Program-made: the position numbers and the translations under genes | The notes under the pieces: model-generated | What the model was told of the DNA's origin: nothing | Database searches by the model: none | The model's input: the letters and a program-made list of their open reading frames with translations, nothing else | Assembly: GCF_000172995.2 (NCBI RefSeq) | Contig: NC_014729.1 | Coordinates: 1,470,001 to 1,502,000, forward strand | DNA: 32,000 nt | Source of the DNA: Halogeometricum borinquense DSM 11551 | GTDB lineage: Archaea; Halobacteriota; Halobacteria; Halobacteriales; Haloferacaceae | Direction: 5' to 3' | Part shown: one piece after another, positions 1 to 12,192 of the stretch | How positions within the stretch are numbered: position 1 is the first letter of the stretch | Layout: the number at the start of each line of letters is the position of its first letter

Positions 1-3000
1 ACCCGATTCCGCTCGACGCGCAGTCGGAACTCGGGCAGGAACACTTCTTCGATACGTTCCGACTGGAGGACGACAGCCCGTTCGCCGACCTCGTCACCGG
101 GATGATGGACCTCCTGCATGAACTCCGGGACGAGAACGAGGCGAAGTTCGTGAAAGGCGCTTACGACTTCTGGGAGGCGACATACGCCGACGAGCCGGAC
201 GAGGTGCCGAACTCATGGGACCCGTTCATCAACGGGAAGCAGTCGCTTCGAGACTTCATGTTCTGTCTGGAGAGCGGACACGCGCTTCTCGCACGGCTCC
301 TACTAGCGAAGGCCACCGAGGACCACGATTTCTTCGCGGGCACTGGATACGATGGGATGGACGACTACTTCCGCGGGTTGCAGGGCTTCGGCGACACCAT
401 CAACCTCGATGCATTCCCCGTCGCGGCGGACGACCTCATCGACGATATGCAGGAGCAGTTAGTCGAAGGGCTGTTTCAGGACGACATCTTCATCTGGTGG
501 ACTGACGGATACAGAGAGCAGATTGATACTCAGCACGCGAGCGGGCCGAGCCGGTTCGAGGACGTAGCACGCGGATCCGGTGACGTGGAACGTGTCAGCG
601 AGACTACTCGGGACCGCTTCAGCCGCGCCGTCGCCGAGGTGTTCTTCAACGTCCTACGGTTCGACTTCCAAGACGTGGAGGGCGATCTCCTCGGGGACCT
701 CTACCAGCGGTATTTCGACCCGGAGACGCGCAAGGCACTCGGCGAGTTCTACACGCCACAGCCGGTCATCGACTACATCATGGACGGCGTCGGCTACGAG
801 CGCGGCGTCTCGAACGAGCGACTCATCGACCCGTCGTGTGGGTCCGGGACCTTCCTCGTGGAGGCCGTCGAGCGGTACATCACCGACGTGGAGAACTTCG
901 AGGACAACCCCGACTGGGAGGAGCATCTACGCGACCTCTGTACCCGCCCGCGCATTGTTGGGCTTGATATACACCCGTTCGCTGTTCTGATGGCACAGAT
1001 TCGCTTCGTGGTCGCTATCCTCCCGGCGTATCGAGAGGCGAAAACGCAGAATCCCGAGTTTACCATTCGGCGGCTCCCAATCTACCGAACCGACACCCTC
1101 CGAAACGAGCGGGAACTGACGGGCGCGGACCTCGGCGACGACGGCACCCGGCAGATGACCTTCGACGCGATGACCGAGGACGACCAAGACGTACGGATTC
1201 CCGTCCCGCTTCCGGTGGAAGTAGACGAGGACGAGGTCGCCGAAACCGAGGACGGCTTCCTCGTGCGCCGGGTTCGGATGCCGCTGTTCGACACGATTCA
1301 GTTGGAGACTGGCGTCAAGAACTTCGGGGAGTATTTCGCGGCCCTACAAGGCGTCTTGGACACCGTCAAGGACCATATGGCGCTGGCCGAGGAATTCGGC
1401 GGCGACTTCGACTGGGAATACAAGAGTGGGCTGGAGGAGCGCATCAACCAGCACACGTCGCGGGACTACTCTGGGGTAGAGGAGTTCTTCACACCCTACG
1501 TGAACGATATGCTGGAGAACGTGCGCTACCTGAAGGAGGAACACAACGACGGACGGCTGTTCAAGATGTTCGAGGACACCGTGCTCGCGCTCGTCGTGAA
1601 GAACTACATGGAGTACGACTACGTCGTGGGGAATCCGCCGTATGTGAATATCAAATATATCTCCGATACCGCGCAAGAACGCTACACCAGACTATACGAT
1701 TCAGCATTTGGGCGTTTTGACCTCTATGTTTTATTTATTGAGCGTGGACTGGAGATGCTAACTGAGGACGGCGAGTTAGGTTACATTACCTCGAATAAGT
1801 TTGCCCGTGCAGAGTATGGGAGAGAAATCAGGCGGTTAATCAGTTCGGAGTATTCCTTGGCGGAGTACATCGACTTTGGCGATACAGAGGTATTCAAGGA
1901 CGCAACTAATTACCCCTGTATTCTGTTTGTTGACCGTGATAGAAATAGAAAAACCGTCCCATATGCAAAAATTAGACGAGAACAAGATAATATCCTCGAT
2001 GTAGTTGCATCTCACTTAGGTAAAGAAAACTACCTCTCAGACGGGATTGAAATCTCCCGATATCCGTCTGAGAGATTATCCGAAGAAGTGTGGACATTCA
2101 CCCCGGAACCGGTTCGTGAGGTTGTGACGAAATTACAACAGAACGGAACCACCACAGTTGAAGAAGCGTGTCTTGGGGTTCGACAAGGTGTCTCTTCTGG
2201 TGGGGATGATGCGTTTATTGTGTCCCCCGAATATGCAGACCAGAAGGAGTTAGAGAACGAATTGCTATATCCTCTCATCCGTGGGGAGAATGTTCGTCGC
2301 TGGATTGTTGATTGGGAGGAAGAAGTCGCTATATACCCATACGATGACGACGGCGAGTTGGTTGACTTTTCCGAGTATCCGAGCGTGAAATCTCATTTAG
2401 AGGACCACCGTGAGTATCTCGAAGACCGATATTGCGTAAAAAAAGGAGGGAAGGGAATCTATGAGTACGACGGCCCAAGGTGTAAGTCTGTTTTTGAGGG
2501 AGATTTTAGAATTCCTGTTCCAGATATGGCGACTGAAAATCAATTCTCCTATGCTGACGGGTACAACTGTTTCAAAAACACCGCATACGTACTTACTTTT
2601 AATGATGAACAACCCTATTCGGAGTTGGAGTTGCTTGGTTTGTTAAATAGTGCTGTGTCGGAGTTCTATATCAAACAAAAAAGTCCATTCTTGAATGACC
2701 AATATTTCCGATATAAGAGCCAGTACATTGACCCAATACCACTACCCGCAGAAACCGACCGTATTTCTTCAGTCGTTGACGATATTCTTGCAGTTGAGAG
2801 ATTGGGTCGAAAGGTCGAGAATTTCCCAGATTCATATATTGACGAATATGACGGCGAGGTGGCGTATATCACATACGAGTGGCAAACGACTCGGAAACCA
2901 GTAAATGCAGAAATTAATACCAACGACGACGGTACAATATCGGTACAAGCAGGACGAACCGATAGCATCGTAGATGCGGCGATGCACTCTGAGGACAACG

Positions 3001-3263
3001 AGGCCCGCAAGCGCCGGGCCGAGTACGTTTATGCGGCAGTAGACGGCTGCAACGTCAAGAGCGGCAAAGAAATAACTATTCCAATCCCCCGAAGCGATGA
3101 CGGCGTTGTGGACCTGCTGGACCGGCTTGAAGCCGACCGCGAGGAAGTCCGGCAGACCGACATCGAAGACCTCGAAGCCGAGATTGATGACGCGGTCTAC
3201 GACCTATTCGACCTGACCGAGGACGAGCGCGAAGTCGTAGAGGACTACCTCGAAGTGTTCTGA
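1..3263 (+). CDS. N6-adenine DNA methyltransferase, Eco57I/type IIG- or BREX PglX-like (gamma-class); 5' end probably outside window
   Basis: ORF track gives 102..3263, but the same frame is open back to nt 3 (PIPLDAQSELGQEHFFDTFRLEDDSPFADLVTG precedes the first Met). Motif X-like EFYTPQPV, motif I DPSCGSGTFL (828-857) and motif IV NPPY (1632-1643) are present. DLYVLFIERG...GYITSNKF follows, then a long target-recognition region. The acidic tail LFDLTEDEREVVEDYLEVF is typical of this enzyme family. Confidence 0.85.
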   Translation, partial: PIPLDAQSELGQEHFFDTFRLEDDSPFADLVTGMMDLLHELRDENEAKFVKGAYDFWEATYADEPDEVPNSWDPFINGKQSLRDFMFCLESGHALLARLLLAKATEDHDFFAGTGYDGMDDYFRGLQGFGDTINLDAFPVAADDLIDDMQEQLVEGLFQDDIFIWWTDGYREQIDTQHASGPSRFEDVARGSGDVERVSETTRDRFSRAVAEVFFNVLRFDFQDVEGDLLGDLYQRYFDPETRKALGEFYTPQPVIDYIMDGVGYERGVSNERLIDPSCGSGTFLVEAVERYITDVENFEDNPDWEEHLRDLCTRPRIVGLDIHPFAVLMAQIRFVVAILPAYREAKTQNPEFTIRRLPIYRTDTLRNERELTGADLGDDGTRQMTFDAMTEDDQDVRIPVPLPVEVDEDEVAETEDGFLVRRVRMPLFDTIQLETGVKNFGEYFAALQGVLDTVKDHMALAEEFGGDFDWEYKSGLEERINQHTSRDYSGVEEFFTPYVNDMLENVRYLKEEHNDGRLFKMFEDTVLALVVKNYMEYDYVVGNPPYVNIKYISDTAQERYTRLYDSAFGRFDLYVLFIERGLEMLTEDGELGYITSNKFARAEYGREIRRLISSEYSLAEYIDFGDTEVFKDATNYPCILFVDRDRNRKTVPYAKIRREQDNILDVVASHLGKENYLSDGIEISRYPSERLSEEVWTFTPEPVREVVTKLQQNGTTTVEEACLGVRQGVSSGGDDAFIVSPEYADQKELENELLYPLIRGENVRRWIVDWEEEVAIYPYDDDGELVDFSEYPSVKSHLEDHREYLEDRYCVKKGGKGIYEYDGPRCKSVFEGDFRIPVPDMATENQFSYADGYNCFKNTAYVLTFNDEQPYSELELLGLLNSAVSEFYIKQKSPFLNDQYFRYKSQYIDPIPLPAETDRISSVVDDILAVERLGRKVENFPDSYIDEYDGEVAYITYEWQTTRKPVNAEINTNDDGTISVQAGRTDSIVDAAMHSEDNEARKRRAEYVYAAVDGCNVKSGKEITIPIPRSDDGVVDLLDRLEADREEVRQTDIEDLEAEIDDAVYDLFDLTEDEREVVEDYLEVF

Positions 3264-3275
3264 GCAAATACCGAT

Positions 3276-4460
3276 TCAGAGCATATCATCGGTTGTCTCC
3301 GCGTTCCGTAACTTTCCGAGCGTCGTGTACTGGAGTGACTGCGGATACTTCGACTCAAACGGAACCGGGTCTTCGAGTTCGTAGAGTGAACCCGGCTCGA
3401 ACATGATGACCTTCTTTCCCTCCGCAATCTTCGCTCGGTCCTTGTAATCCAACGGCTCTCGCATCAACTCCGCCTCATCGGGTTCGACCACGTCACTCAC
3501 CTTAGCGAAGTATTTGACTTCTCGAACGTCTCCAGTGACGTACATTGCCACGTAGTCGAAGTCGCTCCCAACCCGAACAAACCCCCACGCTTCGTTCTCT
3601 TTGAGAAACGGAAGTCCAGACTCTTTGGTCGGGAATACGGCTACGCGGGCATCTGAATCCCCATTGATTTCTTTTCGGGCAATCGTACCCGCGACCCGGT
3701 TCTCCAGTGGTTCTATCTCGTCGGCGGCGTCATCGGATTCCGGTTCGTCATCTTCTTCCGACTCTCCGGGCGGTTCCTCGCTGACGAAGTGTCGCTGTTC
3801 ACGGAGTACGGAGACGAGATTCTGTACGAACTCCCGAGACTGTTCCTCAAGGTCTATAGTTAAGTCGCCCACCTCGTTCTCCACGGTCTCAGTGACGGAC
3901 TCGGTGACGCTGTCTTCGTTTTCTTGCAGGTGACGAATCGCCCGGTTCGTCTGCGCGACCTGTTCCGCTACCTCATCGGATTTCCCCGACCGGATCGATT
4001 CCTTGGTGAGCAGTTCCAGCACGTCTGGATTCTCGGCGAGGTCATCGAGGTCGAACTGAACGACGGACACCTCCTCGCCGCCGTTCCGGTGGCGGTTCTT
4101 GGTCAAGACCTCAAAGGACTTCCCGTTGGTCAGAATCCCCCAGTCTACATCGAGTTCCTGTCTCATGTAACTCCGCAATTGCTGGACTTCGTCGTCGGTG
4201 AGCGTAGACCGGACAGGCTTCGCTTCAACGAACACTACCGGAGAGTCCCCCACAAGAAGTGCGTAATCGACGTGGGTACTTCCTGATGCCATCGGGATAG
4301 TGTATTCGAGGGCGACTTCGGTAGAGTAGAGGTTCCATCCGAGAAGTTCGAGAAACGGTTGGACGAGTTTGACCTTCGTGTTCTCCTCGTCCATCTGCGG
4401 TGACGACTCGATGAGTTGCTGACACCGCTGGACGTGCTCGTCTATCTCATCCCTGTCCAT
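3276..4460 (-). CDS. HsdR-N-type PD-(D/E)xK nuclease-domain protein fused to an acidic linker and an unassigned C-terminal domain
   Basis: ORF track gives 3276..4469 (TTG). I prefer the ATG at 4460 (MDRDEIDEHV...). The N-terminus has the type I restriction HsdR N-terminal pattern: PFLELLGW, HVDYALL, VVFVEAKP, QLRSYM, WGILTNG. It is convergent with the methyltransferase, with a 12-nt gap. Confidence 0.8.
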   Translation of the reverse strand: MDRDEIDEHVQRCQQLIESSPQMDEENTKVKLVQPFLELLGWNLYSTEVALEYTIPMASGSTHVDYALLVGDSPVVFVEAKPVRSTLTDDEVQQLRSYMRQELDVDWGILTNGKSFEVLTKNRHRNGGEEVSVVQFDLDDLAENPDVLELLTKESIRSGKSDEVAEQVAQTNRAIRHLQENEDSVTESVTETVENEVGDLTIDLEEQSREFVQNLVSVLREQRHFVSEEPPGESEEDDEPESDDAADEIEPLENRVAGTIARKEINGDSDARVAVFPTKESGLPFLKENEAWGFVRVGSDFDYVAMYVTGDVREVKYFAKVSDVVEPDEAELMREPLDYKDRAKIAEGKKVIMFEPGSLYELEDPVPFESKYPQSLQYTTLGKLRNAETTDDML

Positions 4461-4483
4461 TAGAGACAATGGGACAACGTGTC

Positions 4484-4492
4484 TACTAATAT
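4484..4492 (-). promoter_or_regulatory. TATA-like box for a leaderless transcript of the 3276..4460 gene
   Basis: The minus strand reads GATATTAGTA, centred about -28 from the ATG at 4460. This is the spacing expected for haloarchaeal leaderless promoters. Confidence 0.3.
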
Positions 4493-4826
4493 CATGGTGA
4501 AAAGGGATGACAGCGGCTAACGCTGTCCCGAAGGTACCTTTTTAATCCTTTTCCTATTTTGCATCCCTTCGGGGGACAATATAGGCAAAACAGGCGTCTT
4601 AGCCCCCTCACCGAAGGCGCGCTTAGAACGCTGTCTCGGAGGAGTCCTCGCGGTTCGAATACGTCATACGCATTCGAAGCAGGGAACGGAGCGAAGCGGA
4701 GTGACTGCGGTTCGAATCCGGTCTCGCATACAACGTTTTGACAGAGCTATCAGCAAGCGCGGACGCTACTCGCACTGCCGCTAGACTTGCTATCTTACGC
4801 TTTTGACCCGAAACTGCGAACCGTGT

Positions 4827-4840
4827 CTGACGCGCGTCAG
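4827..4840. repeat. perfect 14-bp palindrome ctgacgcgcgtcag
   Basis: Read directly. The arms are ctgacgc / gcgtcag with no spacer, about 60 nt upstream of dacZ. Confidence 0.9.
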
Positions 4841-4872
4841 CCGATATCACCACCGAGAACGTCCCACAAGTC

Positions 4873-4879
4873 TTTTTTT
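4873..4879 (+). promoter_or_regulatory. T7 run at -29..-23 of dacZ; TATA-like element for a leaderless mRNA (could alternatively terminate an upstream RNA)
   Basis: tcTTTTTTTc lies 23-29 nt upstream of the ATG at 4902. Confidence 0.3.
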
Positions 4880-4901
4880 CACCGCAGTTGACCAATGACT
4901 G

Positions 4902-5717
4902 ATGGTGGCGTTATCGGACCTCCTCGACAATGTCGTGGCGGATGTGGACGCGTTGTTCATTTTCTCGCCGAGTAGTTCGTACTACGAACGGTTCGCAGAC
5001 GCCGACCTCGACACACCAGTTGTGGTGGTCGCGTCCGAGAACGCCGTCGATGCGGAAACGTACATCGAACTCCCCTTAGAGTTCGACAACGTACGCGACC
5101 GCATCCGCTTCGGTGTCGAGGGTGCCATGGAGAACGGTGTCGTCGAGGAGGACGACATCGTCGCTTGCAACGTCGCGGTCTTCGGCGGCGACCAAGACGC
5201 CGTGATTCGCGTCCGCGTCACAGAGGAGATGCGGTCCGGCATCTACGACCTGTTCGCTAACTCCCGTGCGGACCCGAGCGTCATCCGCAACGTGTTCGAG
5301 GTGGCGATTGAACTCGGCAAGAAGGGACAGAAGGGGAAACCGGTCGGCGCGTTGTTCGTCGTCGGTGACGCCGGAAAGGTGATGAACAAGTCCCGACCGC
5401 TGTCGTACAACCCGTTCGAGAAGTCTCACGTCCACGTCGGCGATCCCATCGTGAACGTGATGCTCAAGGAGTTCTCCCGGTTGGACGGTGCGTTCATCAT
5501 CTCCGACTCGGGGAAAATCGTCAGTGCCTACCGCTATCTTGAACCCGCGGCGGAGGGGGTCGATATTCCGAAGGGCCTCGGCGCGCGACACATGGCCGGT
5601 GCGGCGATCACCCGCGACACGAACGCGACGACGATTGTTCTCTCGGAGTCGGACGGCCTCGTCCGAGCGTTCAAGGGCGGACAGATGATTCTGGAGATTG
5701 ACCCGGAGGACTACTAA
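4902..5717 (+). CDS. dacZ: diadenylate cyclase DacZ (c-di-AMP synthase; N-terminal pyruvate-kinase-C-like domain plus DAC domain)
   Basis: DAC-domain motifs are present: GALFVVGD, LDGAFIISDSGKI, GLGARHMAGAAIT and TIVLSESDGLVRAFKGG. The 271-aa size and two-domain layout match archaeal DacZ. Confidence 0.9.
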   Translation: MVALSDLLDNVVADVDALFIFSPSSSYYERFADADLDTPVVVVASENAVDAETYIELPLEFDNVRDRIRFGVEGAMENGVVEEDDIVACNVAVFGGDQDAVIRVRVTEEMRSGIYDLFANSRADPSVIRNVFEVAIELGKKGQKGKPVGALFVVGDAGKVMNKSRPLSYNPFEKSHVHVGDPIVNVMLKEFSRLDGAFIISDSGKIVSAYRYLEPAAEGVDIPKGLGARHMAGAAITRDTNATTIVLSESDGLVRAFKGGQMILEIDPEDY

Positions 5718-6568
5718 TGATCCCCGCGGGTTCCATGCTTTTGATGCAGAGCGGCGACCGTACTCCCACGTCCGGCCCTGCAACGAGTCCTGCAGACTCG
5801 TTCCTCGCGGAACTCTACACGCTTTTTCCTCGGGATGTGTGGTTCGCGCTGATCGTTCTCGTCGCGGGTGTCGCCGTCGCTCTCATCCTCGGGACGCTCA
5901 CACGTCGTGTGCTGACCGGTCTCGGCGTCCCCGAAGCTATCGAGGGAACGGCGTTCGAGCGGACCGCGCGGAACTTCGACACTTCGACGGTCGAAATCCT
6001 CGGCTGGTTGGTCCGGTATTTCGTCGTCGGCATCGCTATCCTCGCCGCGTTGTCCATCGCCAACGTGAACTACGCCGACCGGTTCTGGAGTCAGGTCGTC
6101 GAGTTCCTGCCGATGTTGTTCTTCGCGGTGGTCATCCTCATCGTCGGCATCGTCGTCGGCGACAAGGTTGAACTGCTGGTCGCAGAGCGACTGCGCGGTG
6201 TCAAACTCCCGCAGATCGGTATCATCCCTGCGGCCGCGAAGTTCACCGTGTTCTATCTCGCGTCCCTCATCGCCCTCTCGCAACTCGGTGTTGCCACCAT
6301 GGCGCTCGTCATCTTCCTCGCCGCCTACCTGTTCGCCATCGTGTTCCTCGGCGGCATCGCCTTCGCGGATATGCTCAAGTCGGGTGCGGCGGGCACGTAC
6401 CTCCTCTTGACGCAACCCTACGCCATCGGCGACGAAATTCGCGTCGGCGACACGGGCGGTATCGTCCAAGAGGTGGACTTGTTCGTCACGCACGTCGAGG
6501 ACGACGGCGAGGAGTACATCGTCCCCAACCGGAAAGTGTTCGAGGAAGGGATCGTCCGTCTCCGTTGA
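5717..6568 (+). CDS. MscS-family mechanosensitive channel protein (short form)
   Basis: Several TM helices are followed by the MscS beta-domain signature PYAIGDEIRVGDTGGIVQEVDLFVTHVEDDGEEYIVPNRKVF. The start overlaps the dacZ stop (TAATG, 5715-5719). Alternative in-frame Met codons lie a few codons downstream. Confidence 0.8.
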   Translation: MIPAGSMLLMQSGDRTPTSGPATSPADSFLAELYTLFPRDVWFALIVLVAGVAVALILGTLTRRVLTGLGVPEAIEGTAFERTARNFDTSTVEILGWLVRYFVVGIAILAALSIANVNYADRFWSQVVEFLPMLFFAVVILIVGIVVGDKVELLVAERLRGVKLPQIGIIPAAAKFTVFYLASLIALSQLGVATMALVIFLAAYLFAIVFLGGIAFADMLKSGAAGTYLLLTQPYAIGDEIRVGDTGGIVQEVDLFVTHVEDDGEEYIVPNRKVFEEGIVRLR

Positions 6569-10143: not shown

Positions 10144-12192
10144 ATGGATTCCCCTCCTGAAACCGACCAACGGGACACCGGCTACACCCTCCACGACGAC
10201 GACATCGACGACCCATATCTATGGTTAGAGGAGACCGACGACGATGTGTCCGCGTGGACGGCGGCGCAAAACGACTACGCGGACGACTACCTCGATTCGC
10301 TGGACATACGCGAGTCGCTCCGGCCTCGCTTCGAGGACCTGGCACGGACGACGACGTACATGCCCGTAAAGGCTCGACAGAACGGCTACTTCCAGCGCGT
10401 CCGCGATGCCGACGCCGACCATCCCGTCCTTACTTTCCGCCCAGGCTTAAACGAAGACCGCCGCGTCCTCGGCGATCCGAACGAGATGAGTGACGACGGG
10501 AGTGTCTCCGTCGATTGGTACGTTCCGAACCCCGACGGTAGTCTCGTCGCTTACGGCGTCGCGGAAGGCGGTGACGAACAGTACGATGTTCGTGTCCTCG
10601 AAACCGAATCGGGTGAGACGGCCGAGGAACTCACCGATGTCGGCCGTACCGGTCCGTGGTGTTTCGGCTGGACGGATGATGGTTTCTACTACCTGACTAC
10701 GGGGTCGGTGGGCGACGGCGGCCAGTTAGAGAAGGAAGTCTGCTTCCATGAGATTGGAACCGACCCGGCGGACGATTGGACGCTCGCCGACGAGTTCTCT
10801 ACGCAGACGTGGCCACTCGTCGAGACGGACGCCGAGAGCGACTACGTTATCCTCGGTCACACTGAAGGCTGGGAGCGGACCGACCTCTACTACGCCGAAC
10901 TCGGATCCGACGAACTGCATCCCCTCGTCGTCGGCGAGGACGCTCTCTTCGAACCGACGCTTGACGGGAACGACGTGTACGTGAACACCTCGCTCGATGC
11001 GTCGAACTACCGCGTGGTCAGCGTATCTCTCGATGCTGTGGACCCGAGTGCGTCGCCAACGGACGTGGGCGAGTCGTCAACGGACCCGAACAAGCCGTTC
11101 GAGACGGTGGTTGCAGAACGCGACGATGCCATCGCACAGGAACTCGACGTAATCGGTGACCGAATCGTCGTGAAGTACCTCCGCGACGCCGTCCACGAAC
11201 TCGTCGTCTTCGATGCCGATGGCGAGCAGGATGAGACGGTTCCACTACCGGGACGCGGGTCGGTCGCCTCTTTCGGCGGCGAGGACGACCTGTTTTTCAC
11301 CTACGAATCGTTCACCGAACCGCCGTCGATCCGACGCTACGCCTTCGGCGCAGACGAGACGACAGTCGTAGATCAGCCGGATATTTCGACCGAGACAGAC
11401 CTGACTGTCACCCAAGACTGGTTTGCATCCGCGGACGGAACCGAAGTTCCGGCGTTCGTCGTGCGCCGCTCCGACCTCGAATGCGACGGTGACAACCCTG
11501 CGGTGCTGTACGGATACGGCGGGTTTGAGAACAGTCTCACCCCATTCTTCGGCGAGTTCTTCCTCCCGTTCCTCGAATCGGGTGGGGTCCTCGCCGTCGC
11601 CAACCTTCGCGGCGGCGGCGAGTTCGGCGAGTCGTGGCACCACGCGGGTCGCCGCGAACACAAACAACGGGTCTTCGATGATTTCTTCGCCGCCGCCGAA
11701 CACCTCGTCGAGAATGGCTACACCTCCACAGAACGACTCGCCTGCTTCGGCGGGAGCAACGGCGGCCTTCTGGTGGGTGCGTCGATCACTCAACGACCAG
11801 ACCTGTTCGCGGCGGCCGTCTGCAAGGTTCCACTCCTCGATATGCTTCGGTTCCACACATCGCTTCTCGGTGAGACGTGGACCACCGAGTACGGGTCGCC
11901 CGACGACCCCGAAGCGTACGAGTACATCCGCGAGTACTCGCCGTATCACAATGTCGAAGAACGCGCGTACCCGGCCGTTCTCTTTACGACTGGCGAAAGC
12001 GACTCTCGCGTGGACCCGTTCCACGCCCGAAAGATGGCCGCACGGATGCAGGCCGCACAATCGGGAGCGGATCCGATCCTCCTGAAAACTCGGTCGCAGA
12101 CGGGCCACGGATCCGGCAAACCCGTTTCAAAAGTTGTCGAGGAGAATCTCGACGAGTGGTCGTTCCTCGGCGACCAACTGGACGCATTCTAG
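10144..12192 (+). CDS. prolyl oligopeptidase family serine peptidase (S9A)
   Basis: DPYLWLEE is near the N-terminus, followed by a beta-propeller region. The catalytic domain has the nucleophile motif GGSNGGLLVG, then DSRVDP and GHG. The ORF-track start 10018 (TTG) is trimmed to the ATG at 10144 (MDSPPETDQ...). Confidence 0.9.
   Translation: MDSPPETDQRDTGYTLHDDDIDDPYLWLEETDDDVSAWTAAQNDYADDYLDSLDIRESLRPRFEDLARTTTYMPVKARQNGYFQRVRDADADHPVLTFRPGLNEDRRVLGDPNEMSDDGSVSVDWYVPNPDGSLVAYGVAEGGDEQYDVRVLETESGETAEELTDVGRTGPWCFGWTDDGFYYLTTGSVGDGGQLEKEVCFHEIGTDPADDWTLADEFSTQTWPLVETDAESDYVILGHTEGWERTDLYYAELGSDELHPLVVGEDALFEPTLDGNDVYVNTSLDASNYRVVSVSLDAVDPSASPTDVGESSTDPNKPFETVVAERDDAIAQELDVIGDRIVVKYLRDAVHELVVFDADGEQDETVPLPGRGSVASFGGEDDLFFTYESFTEPPSIRRYAFGADETTVVDQPDISTETDLTVTQDWFASADGTEVPAFVVRRSDLECDGDNPAVLYGYGGFENSLTPFFGEFFLPFLESGGVLAVANLRGGGEFGESWHHAGRREHKQRVFDDFFAAAEHLVENGYTSTERLACFGGSNGGLLVGASITQRPDLFAAAVCKVPLLDMLRFHTSLLGETWTTEYGSPDDPEAYEYIREYSPYHNVEERAYPAVLFTTGESDSRVDPFHARKMAARMQAAQSGADPILLKTRSQTGHGSGKPVSKVVEENLDEWSFLGDQLDAF

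Follow-up and report, generated by a model that had tools for sequence, protein, structure and literature searches.

The gene at positions 3276 to 4460 of the minus strand probably codes for a DNA endonuclease of a self-contained, modification-dependent (Type IV-like) kind, in which an N-terminal PD-(D/E)xK nuclease is followed by a C-terminal putative reader domain of predicted ASCH/PUA-like fold. The window, meaning the whole stretch of DNA that was analysed, comprises 32,000 nucleotides of Halogeometricum borinquense DNA. The reading frame stands as the first-pass annotation had given it; it is present in the ORF list, its start is shared by the homologues and its product is 100% identical to an annotated H. 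borinquense hypothetical protein. In the alignment, the ATG at 4460 agrees with the homologue N-termini (MDRDEIDEYV...), and given these the alternative TTG at 4469 is not required. Database searching returned 691 relatives at E ≤ 0.001. Among the 120 matches listed, every relative from a named organism was haloarchaeal, with 72-94% identity and a distribution over many genera. The names in use, [quoted passage not shown] and “predicted type IV restriction endonuclease”, describe the first third of the protein alone, and our literature searches for this domain architecture found no description of it. The gene and its parts are as follows.

3276 to 4460, minus strand: nuclease-reader coding sequence, complete, 394 amino acids plus a stop codon at 3276-3278 (from the ORF list).
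4056 to 4460, minus strand: PD-(D/E)xK nuclease domain of HSDR_N_2 type, residues 1-135 (from Pfam, PADLOC and conservation).
4266 to 4268, minus strand: catalytic D65 of the nuclease head.
4218 to 4226, minus strand: catalytic E79-A-K81 of the nuclease head.
3783 to 4055, minus strand: helical middle module, residues 136-226 (from conservation and predicted helices).
3696 to 3782, minus strand: hyper-acidic disordered linker, residues 227-255 (from composition, conservation and pLDDT).
3279 to 3695, minus strand: predicted ASCH/PUA-like beta-barrel, residues 256-394, 139 amino acids (from AlphaFold2 and Foldseek).

The protein thus has four parts, a nuclease, a helical module, an acidic linker and a C-terminal beta-barrel, where the first-pass annotation had described three. 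The nuclease head and the beta-rich C-terminal domain of that description were retained, while its hyper-acidic linker of about 140 residues had to be divided: residues 227-255 are indeed of this kind, whereas residues 136-226 are conserved and predicted to be all-helical, with a D+E fraction of 0.25 that lies near the 0.17-0.21 of the neighbouring proteins.

The nuclease head, first recognised by its HsdR N-terminal pattern, matches Pfam HSDR_N_2 (PF13588) at residues 46-131 well above the gathering cut-off (E 6.6e-10, 39.5 bits versus 25), with further matches to HSDR_N (E 1.5e-6) and, weakly, to MmeI_N. In the NCBIfam and PADLOC searches the matches were confined to Type I and Type IIG enzymes and, in these, to the N-terminal nuclease head, those of PADLOC to the Type IIG N-termini being weak. 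Residues D65, E79 and K81 are invariant across 24 close homologues. Among 50 distant representatives, drawn from 50%-identity clusters, D65 is kept in 47, E79 in 46 and K81 in 47, so that the loss of catalytic residues among homologues, which the first-pass annotation had named as an argument against its proposal, did not occur. Residues E52, Q94, Y98 and N112-G113 of the head are also conserved, and its majority frequency per column is 0.91. Because the catalytic residues are conserved, we predict that the nuclease head is active.

Behind the head, helices are predicted over residues 138-225 in the full-length AlphaFold model, at low confidence. This model has a mean pLDDT of 52 because the underlying alignment was shallow and more than 70% identical, and it was used for secondary structure alone and kept out of the fold search. 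The helical module shows a majority frequency of 0.84 and is retained alongside the nuclease head in relatives in which the C-terminal cassette differs; we propose that it may serve as a spacer or as a dimerisation module. The linker has a D+E fraction of 0.52, a majority frequency of 0.46 and a pLDDT below 50 in the full-length model, and its length among homologues ranges from 24 to 52 residues.

The C-terminal domain (C-domain) was modelled separately. The AlphaFold2 model of residues 256-394, obtained from a 19-sequence alignment, has a pLDDT of 86.2 and a pTM of 0.80 and consists mostly of beta strands, with a helix behind the first strand and short helices at the C-terminus. Foldseek comparison with the PDB gave eight matches at E ≤ 0.001, every one of them a Zymomonas mobilis ASCH chain (best match E 7.2e-5, TM about 0.55). 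The lower ranks contained the ASCH proteins MJECL36, EOLA1 and TRIP4 (including dsDNA complexes), YTH domains, the EVE proteins PH1033, Atu2648 and Rpa0253 and the 5hmC-specific restriction endonuclease PD-T4-3, and a search of a viral structure library likewise returned ASCH-annotated proteins. At the sequence level, the Pfam scan of the C-domain gave no family at E values up to 10, ASCH (PF04266) included, the NCBIfam and PADLOC searches gave nothing matching it, and the PDB sequence search gave no match for either the single protein or a profile of 34 diverse members. On the grounds of the model and the Foldseek matches, the C-domain is predicted to adopt a PUA/ASCH-superfamily fold, as a family uncatalogued in the libraries searched. 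Its conserved columns are G282, F285, A291-W292-G293, A305, Y307, P365, Y378 and A387, with a majority frequency of 0.83 over the domain. The first-pass annotation had seen a compact beta-rich module here, had guessed at a PUA/EVE/ASCH-like reader and had suggested AlphaFold and Foldseek as the check. The model (pLDDT 86, pTM 0.80) bears out the module, and the guess holds at the level of the fold, with ASCH proteins on top and EVE proteins, YTH domains and a 5hmC-specific enzyme further down. A housekeeping domain, the outcome said to count against the guess, was not found in the C-terminal region.

Word-index protein searches with the C-domain alone gave only fragments, and the breadth of the family emerged when 1.84 billion cluster representatives were searched exhaustively by HMM (E ≤ 0.001). 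This yielded 182 representatives, many of them of non-halophile composition. The HSDR_N_2 head is present in 43 of the 85 longer ones. Furthermore, the C-domain is fused to GmrSD_C in two representatives (one of these clusters has a 704-aa member as well) and, in one representative each, to Mrr_cat, to PDDEXK_3, to PDDEXK_4, to an ADDT/aGPT-pyrophosphorylase-like DNA-hypermodification domain and, in an MSBL1 archaeon, to TFIIB. In several N-termini left blank by Pfam, D...E-x-K-like motifs were noted by eye (IVIEAK in P0177, LVEMK in P0252), and stand-alone C-domain proteins of about 130-170 residues exist. On plasmid 2 of Halalkalicoccus jeotgali B3 (L054 5971-7928), a C-domain gene (133 aa, hypothetical) lies directly upstream, on the same strand, of a PD-(D/E)XK nuclease gene (454 aa), and the pair looks like a split version of the nuclease-reader fusion. 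The modification sensors of Type IV enzymes are small domains that are repeatedly joined to varied nucleases (PMC6765204, PMC7897488, PMC7641849), and the joining of the C-domain to varied restriction-type nuclease domains follows the same pattern. The idea of a “modification-dependent effector”, already put forward in the first-pass annotation, fits the fusions to Mrr_cat, GmrSD_C, PD-(D/E)xK heads and ADDT; the last of these, a single case, hints at thymidine hypermodification.

In at least 10 of the loci sampled, the C-terminus is a different one, designated C2 (L032, L033, L035, L037, L040, L041, L043, L044, L046 and L047). The C2 cassette lies at about locus position 10700-11150, and L045 falls in one listed range (L043-L047). 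It comprises about 115 residues (...EGYVIRFSDG...SVEFLGxW) and has no Pfam and no PDB sequence match. That C2 is a diverged copy of the ASCH-like domain was considered and rejected, given a profile-profile probability of 0.3%. The nuclease and helical parts of the C2 proteins are 44-93% identical to the window protein, with 85-93% in the closest four (L032, L033, L035 and L037), and the similarity of L032 and L033 to the window protein stops inside the acidic linker, at about residue 229-240. The linker appears to be where one C-terminal cassette is exchanged for another. Because C2 replaces the reader and the match ends in the linker, the comparison supports a fixed nuclease-plus-helical chassis with exchangeable, putative recognition modules, and cassette replacement behind so similar a chassis is typical of specificity-module shuffling.

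In the mechanism that we propose, the C-terminal ASCH/PUA-like barrel would bind nucleic acid, probably incoming DNA, and probe a base, probably a modified one. The base pocket would be lined by the conserved W292, F294, Y307 and Y378, with G282, F285, AWG291-293 and P365 as further candidate pocket residues. The acidic linker, as a flexible tether, and the helical module would position the PD-(D/E)xK domain with its D65, E79 and K81 and would probably dimerise the protein, and the cut would fall some distance from the recognised site. We infer that the substrate is DNA and that cleavage depends on its modification. The enzyme would have no dedicated methyltransferase, and its gene would have its place in the variable or defence regions of chromosomes and megaplasmids of haloarchaea. 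As in stand-alone Type IV enzymes, no partner family recurs beside the gene in most of the loci sampled. Of the two components of such enzymes, a nuclease is present, and the part of the sensor would be taken by a domain of PUA/ASCH-superfamily fold, fused elsewhere to Mrr_cat and GmrSD_C, whose binding of modified bases is putative. An ASCH fold by itself does not imply the reading of modifications, since those ASCH proteins that have been characterised either target RNA or nucleosides or bind DNA but read no modification in it; the moderate TM-scores (about 0.55) and the lack of a sequence link to any characterised reader also weigh against the Type IV-like reading. A more far-reaching proposal, which we regard as possible but doubtful, is that the barrel founds a new PUA/ASCH-like reader family directed at a specific (hyper)modification, perhaps one still undescribed, in the DNA of viruses or plasmids of haloarchaea, and that the chassis is a platform on which unrelated sensor cassettes are swapped by recombination in the linker. 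To our knowledge, the DNA modifications of haloviruses are poorly mapped.

Genomic context was sampled in 47 loci from species-representative genomes, found via two peptide patterns and all belonging to Halobacteria. No gene family apart from the nuclease itself is common to most of them, and the gene thus lacks an obligate partner. It is solitary among housekeeping genes in Natronomonas and Halorubrum, stands beside an integrase and a Type IIG enzyme in Salinibaculum, Haloarcula and Haloferax massiliensis, and occurs also on haloarchaeal megaplasmids, and the relative P0252 has a further Type IIG enzyme and a GIY-YIG gene in its vicinity. Between the homologue and the Type IIG gene, genes of about 320 aa were observed in Haloferax massiliensis (L001 9339-10292) and Salinibaculum (L051 8263-9249); one of the two is annotated as DUF7983, and they have no counterpart in the window. 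In the window, a divergent intergenic region separates the nuclease gene from two further genes.

4902 to 5717, plus strand: DacZ-type diadenylate cyclase gene (dacZ).
5717 to 6568, plus strand: MscS-type channel gene (mscS), with a one-base overlap with dacZ.

Synteny of the dacZ-mscS pair with the nuclease gene was seen in 8 loci, and in 8-11 loci the nuclease gene is found between dacZ-mscS and a coaD-like gene. In Natronococcus sp. A-GB1 (L053 8345-9589), a Pycsar-like pair, consisting of a Guanylate_cyc-type cyclase and a PycTM effector, was observed directly downstream of the homologue. There, homologue and Pycsar pair together sit between dacZ and the coaD-like gene. In several haloarchaea, the interval from dacZ to coaD looks like a variable defence hotspot. 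Scans of the window for tRNAs and Rfam families, including the 440-nt divergent intergenic region 4461-4901, gave no match, so they identified neither an att site nor an RNA component. Several copies of the gene also appear disrupted: in Halorhabdus amylolytica (L027 8224-8658 and 10001-10915) about 1.3 kb of inserted DNA interrupts the homologue, and those in L036 (1044-1829) and L030 are frameshifted or truncated, which suggests occasional gene decay.

The nuclease gene and its neighbour dacZ differ in their patterns of identity. Identity to the window copy is 86% for dacZ and 71% for the nuclease in Halopelagius, and 74% and 84%, respectively, in Halorussus, a pattern incongruent between the two genes. 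In addition, the GC3 of the nuclease gene is 0.68, compared with 0.81 for dacZ, mscS and purD and 0.65 for the Type IIG gene. The incongruence with dacZ together with the atypical GC3 points to horizontal acquisition of the nuclease gene. In every comparison dS was 0.7-3.2 and dN/dS about 0.05. A recent horizontal sweep as the cause of the high identity was rejected on account of the dS of 0.7-3. The whole protein, its helical module included, is under strong long-term purifying selection, and its conservation equals that of the adjacent DacZ.

A dN/dS of about 0.05 is unusual for a defence gene and fits a cellular role as well, and it is mainly for this reason that we retain an alternative, in which the protein is a DNA-maintenance nuclease of repair, recombination or replication and its ASCH-like domain recognises not foreign DNA but lesions, DNA ends or endogenous marks. 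The very strong selection with dS near saturation, the DacZ-like degree of conservation, the recurrence between dacZ-mscS and the coaD-like gene and the presence of TRIP4 ASCH-dsDNA complexes among the structural matches would all suit such a function. We nevertheless consider it unlikely, as the identity pattern departs from that of dacZ, the GC3 is atypical, the gene is found on megaplasmids and beside integrases and defence genes, an unrelated cassette can replace the reader, and the fusion partners Mrr_cat and GmrSD_C are catalytic domains of Type IV restriction.

The structural matches raise a further alternative, an RNA-directed nuclease whose ASCH-like domain binds (modified) RNA, as several ASCH, PUA and YTH domains do. 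The top match, the Zymomonas ASCH protein, is described as a single-stranded-RNA ribonuclease (PMC5615036), and YTH domains, which read m6A in RNA, are among the other matches. This function is quite improbable, however: in restriction enzymes, HSDR_N-type PD-(D/E)xK domains serve to cleave DNA (PMC3424549), the domains to which the reader is fused elsewhere (GmrSD_C, Mrr_cat, ADDT and TFIIB) point to DNA, and the genomic contexts are DNA-defence islands.

On the other side of the nuclease-reader gene, the window holds a methyltransferase gene.

1 to 3263, plus strand: Eco57I/N6_Mtase/TaqI_C methyltransferase gene, its 5' end beyond the window edge (from Pfam and PADLOC).

Its ORF is listed as 102..3263, with frame 3 open from nucleotide 3. 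The product aligns, at 83% identity, with homologues of 1302-1309 aa from their residue 165 onwards, and these homologues carry their own N-terminal PD-(D/E)xK domain (RPDYITL...VYEFKT...GVLTNG). Because the full-length homologues begin with a nuclease domain, the window methyltransferase is best read from its sequence as a Type IIG enzyme whose start lies beyond the window edge and which would need no separate nuclease. A GC content of 0.45 at 2001-3000, compared with about 0.62 in the rest of the window, suggests foreign origin. The methyltransferase and nuclease-reader genes are convergent and 12 nt apart. Across the sample, only about 10 of the 47 loci have an Eco57I-type methyltransferase at a distance of up to 10 kb, and these enzymes are of differing families and stand upstream or downstream on either strand; they were collected by iterative phmmer seeded with two methyltransferases, tblastn and phmmer with the window enzyme having given only orthologues. 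Their co-location is defence-island co-localisation and not operon partnership, and, because the neighbouring methyltransferase is read as a complete Type IIG enzyme, the locus contains two independent systems and not one. The first-pass suggestion that the nuclease-reader is the restriction partner of this methyltransferase, namely the cleavage subunit of a split Type IIG or Type II R-M pair, is thus scarcely credible, despite the short convergent spacing, the Eco57I-type enzymes near homologues in Haloferax massiliensis, Haloarcula and Salinibaculum and the resemblance of the head to the nuclease domains with which MmeI and Type IIG enzymes begin: the methyltransferase is incomplete through the window edge alone, its homologues have a nuclease domain of their own, the methyltransferases that do occur vary in family, distance and orientation, several nuclease-reader homologues are solitary amid housekeeping genes, and a convergent arrangement is not an operon.

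The Type IV-like endonuclease that we favour would be of interest in several respects. In the literature, the only Type IV enzyme that we found for Halobacteria is Mrr of Haloferax, studied by genetics. The family described here is widespread and named in databases by its N-terminal domain alone; a characterised member would add a new modified-nucleic-acid reader domain and a possible epigenetic tool enzyme, would help to explain the barriers to transformation and gene transfer in haloarchaea, and would exemplify the exchange of sensor cassettes on a fixed nuclease chassis.

Among known systems, HsdR (Type I) and the MmeI-type Type IIG enzymes have an N-terminal PD-(D/E)xK domain homologous to the nuclease head. 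A further match was to the head of a Type IIG enzyme encoded beside a homologue in Haloarcula. Unlike HsdR and the Type IIG enzymes, the protein of 394 residues lacks an SF2 helicase/ATPase motor as well as a methyltransferase and a target-recognition domain. There were no helicase or ATPase matches in Pfam or NCBIfam, and the match to the HsdR models covered no more than about their first 160 residues. Judged by these matches, we class the protein as an HSDR_N_2 member; the missing motor domain sets it apart from HsdR, and it is not a member of Pfam ASCH either. The ASCH proteins (Zymomonas mobilis 5GUQ/5Y6B, MJECL36, EOLA1 and TRIP4) are the best structural matches of the C-domain, with E values of 7e-5 to 3e-3 and TM-scores of about 0.5-0.57, but share only 6-17% identity with it across the aligned columns, and the C-domain has no Pfam ASCH match. 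The GxKxxExR motif is typical of ASCH domains and was not seen by eye in the C-domain. Moreover, we know of no characterised ASCH protein that is fused to a restriction-type nuclease.

Closest in domain order are the enzymes of the PvuRts1I/AbaSI family, which depend on 5hmC or ghmC, combine an N-terminal PD-(D/E)xK-type nuclease with a C-terminal PUA-like (SRA-like) barrel and cleave away from the modified base. The window protein likewise has its nuclease at the N-terminus and a predicted PUA-like reader at the C-terminus, but the nuclease is of HSDR_N_2 and not of Vsr-like type, the reader is ASCH-like and not SRA-like, and the long helical module is absent from PvuRts1I and AbaSI. PDB sequence searches detected no similarity to these enzymes.

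The nearest parallel in concept is provided by the PUA-superfamily modification-dependent enzymes, represented by the EVE-HNH protein VcaM4I and the screen of Lutz et al. 2019 (PMC6765204, PMC7897488). These too join a PUA-superfamily beta-barrel reader and a nuclease in one polypeptide, and they are stand-alone enzymes with no cognate methyltransferase, often located in defence islands (PMC6765204, PMC7897488). The reader of the window protein differs from theirs in being ASCH-like by fold and unrecognised by Pfam. Furthermore, Lutz et al. 2019 report that the sensor is N-terminal in all of their non-SRA fusions, whereas here the order is reversed and the nuclease is N-terminal, and a conserved helical module of 90 residues and an acidic linker are inserted between the two domains. 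Finally, in contrast to these enzymes, the nuclease-reader, with its predicted activity and specificity, appears to carry its reader as an exchangeable cassette.
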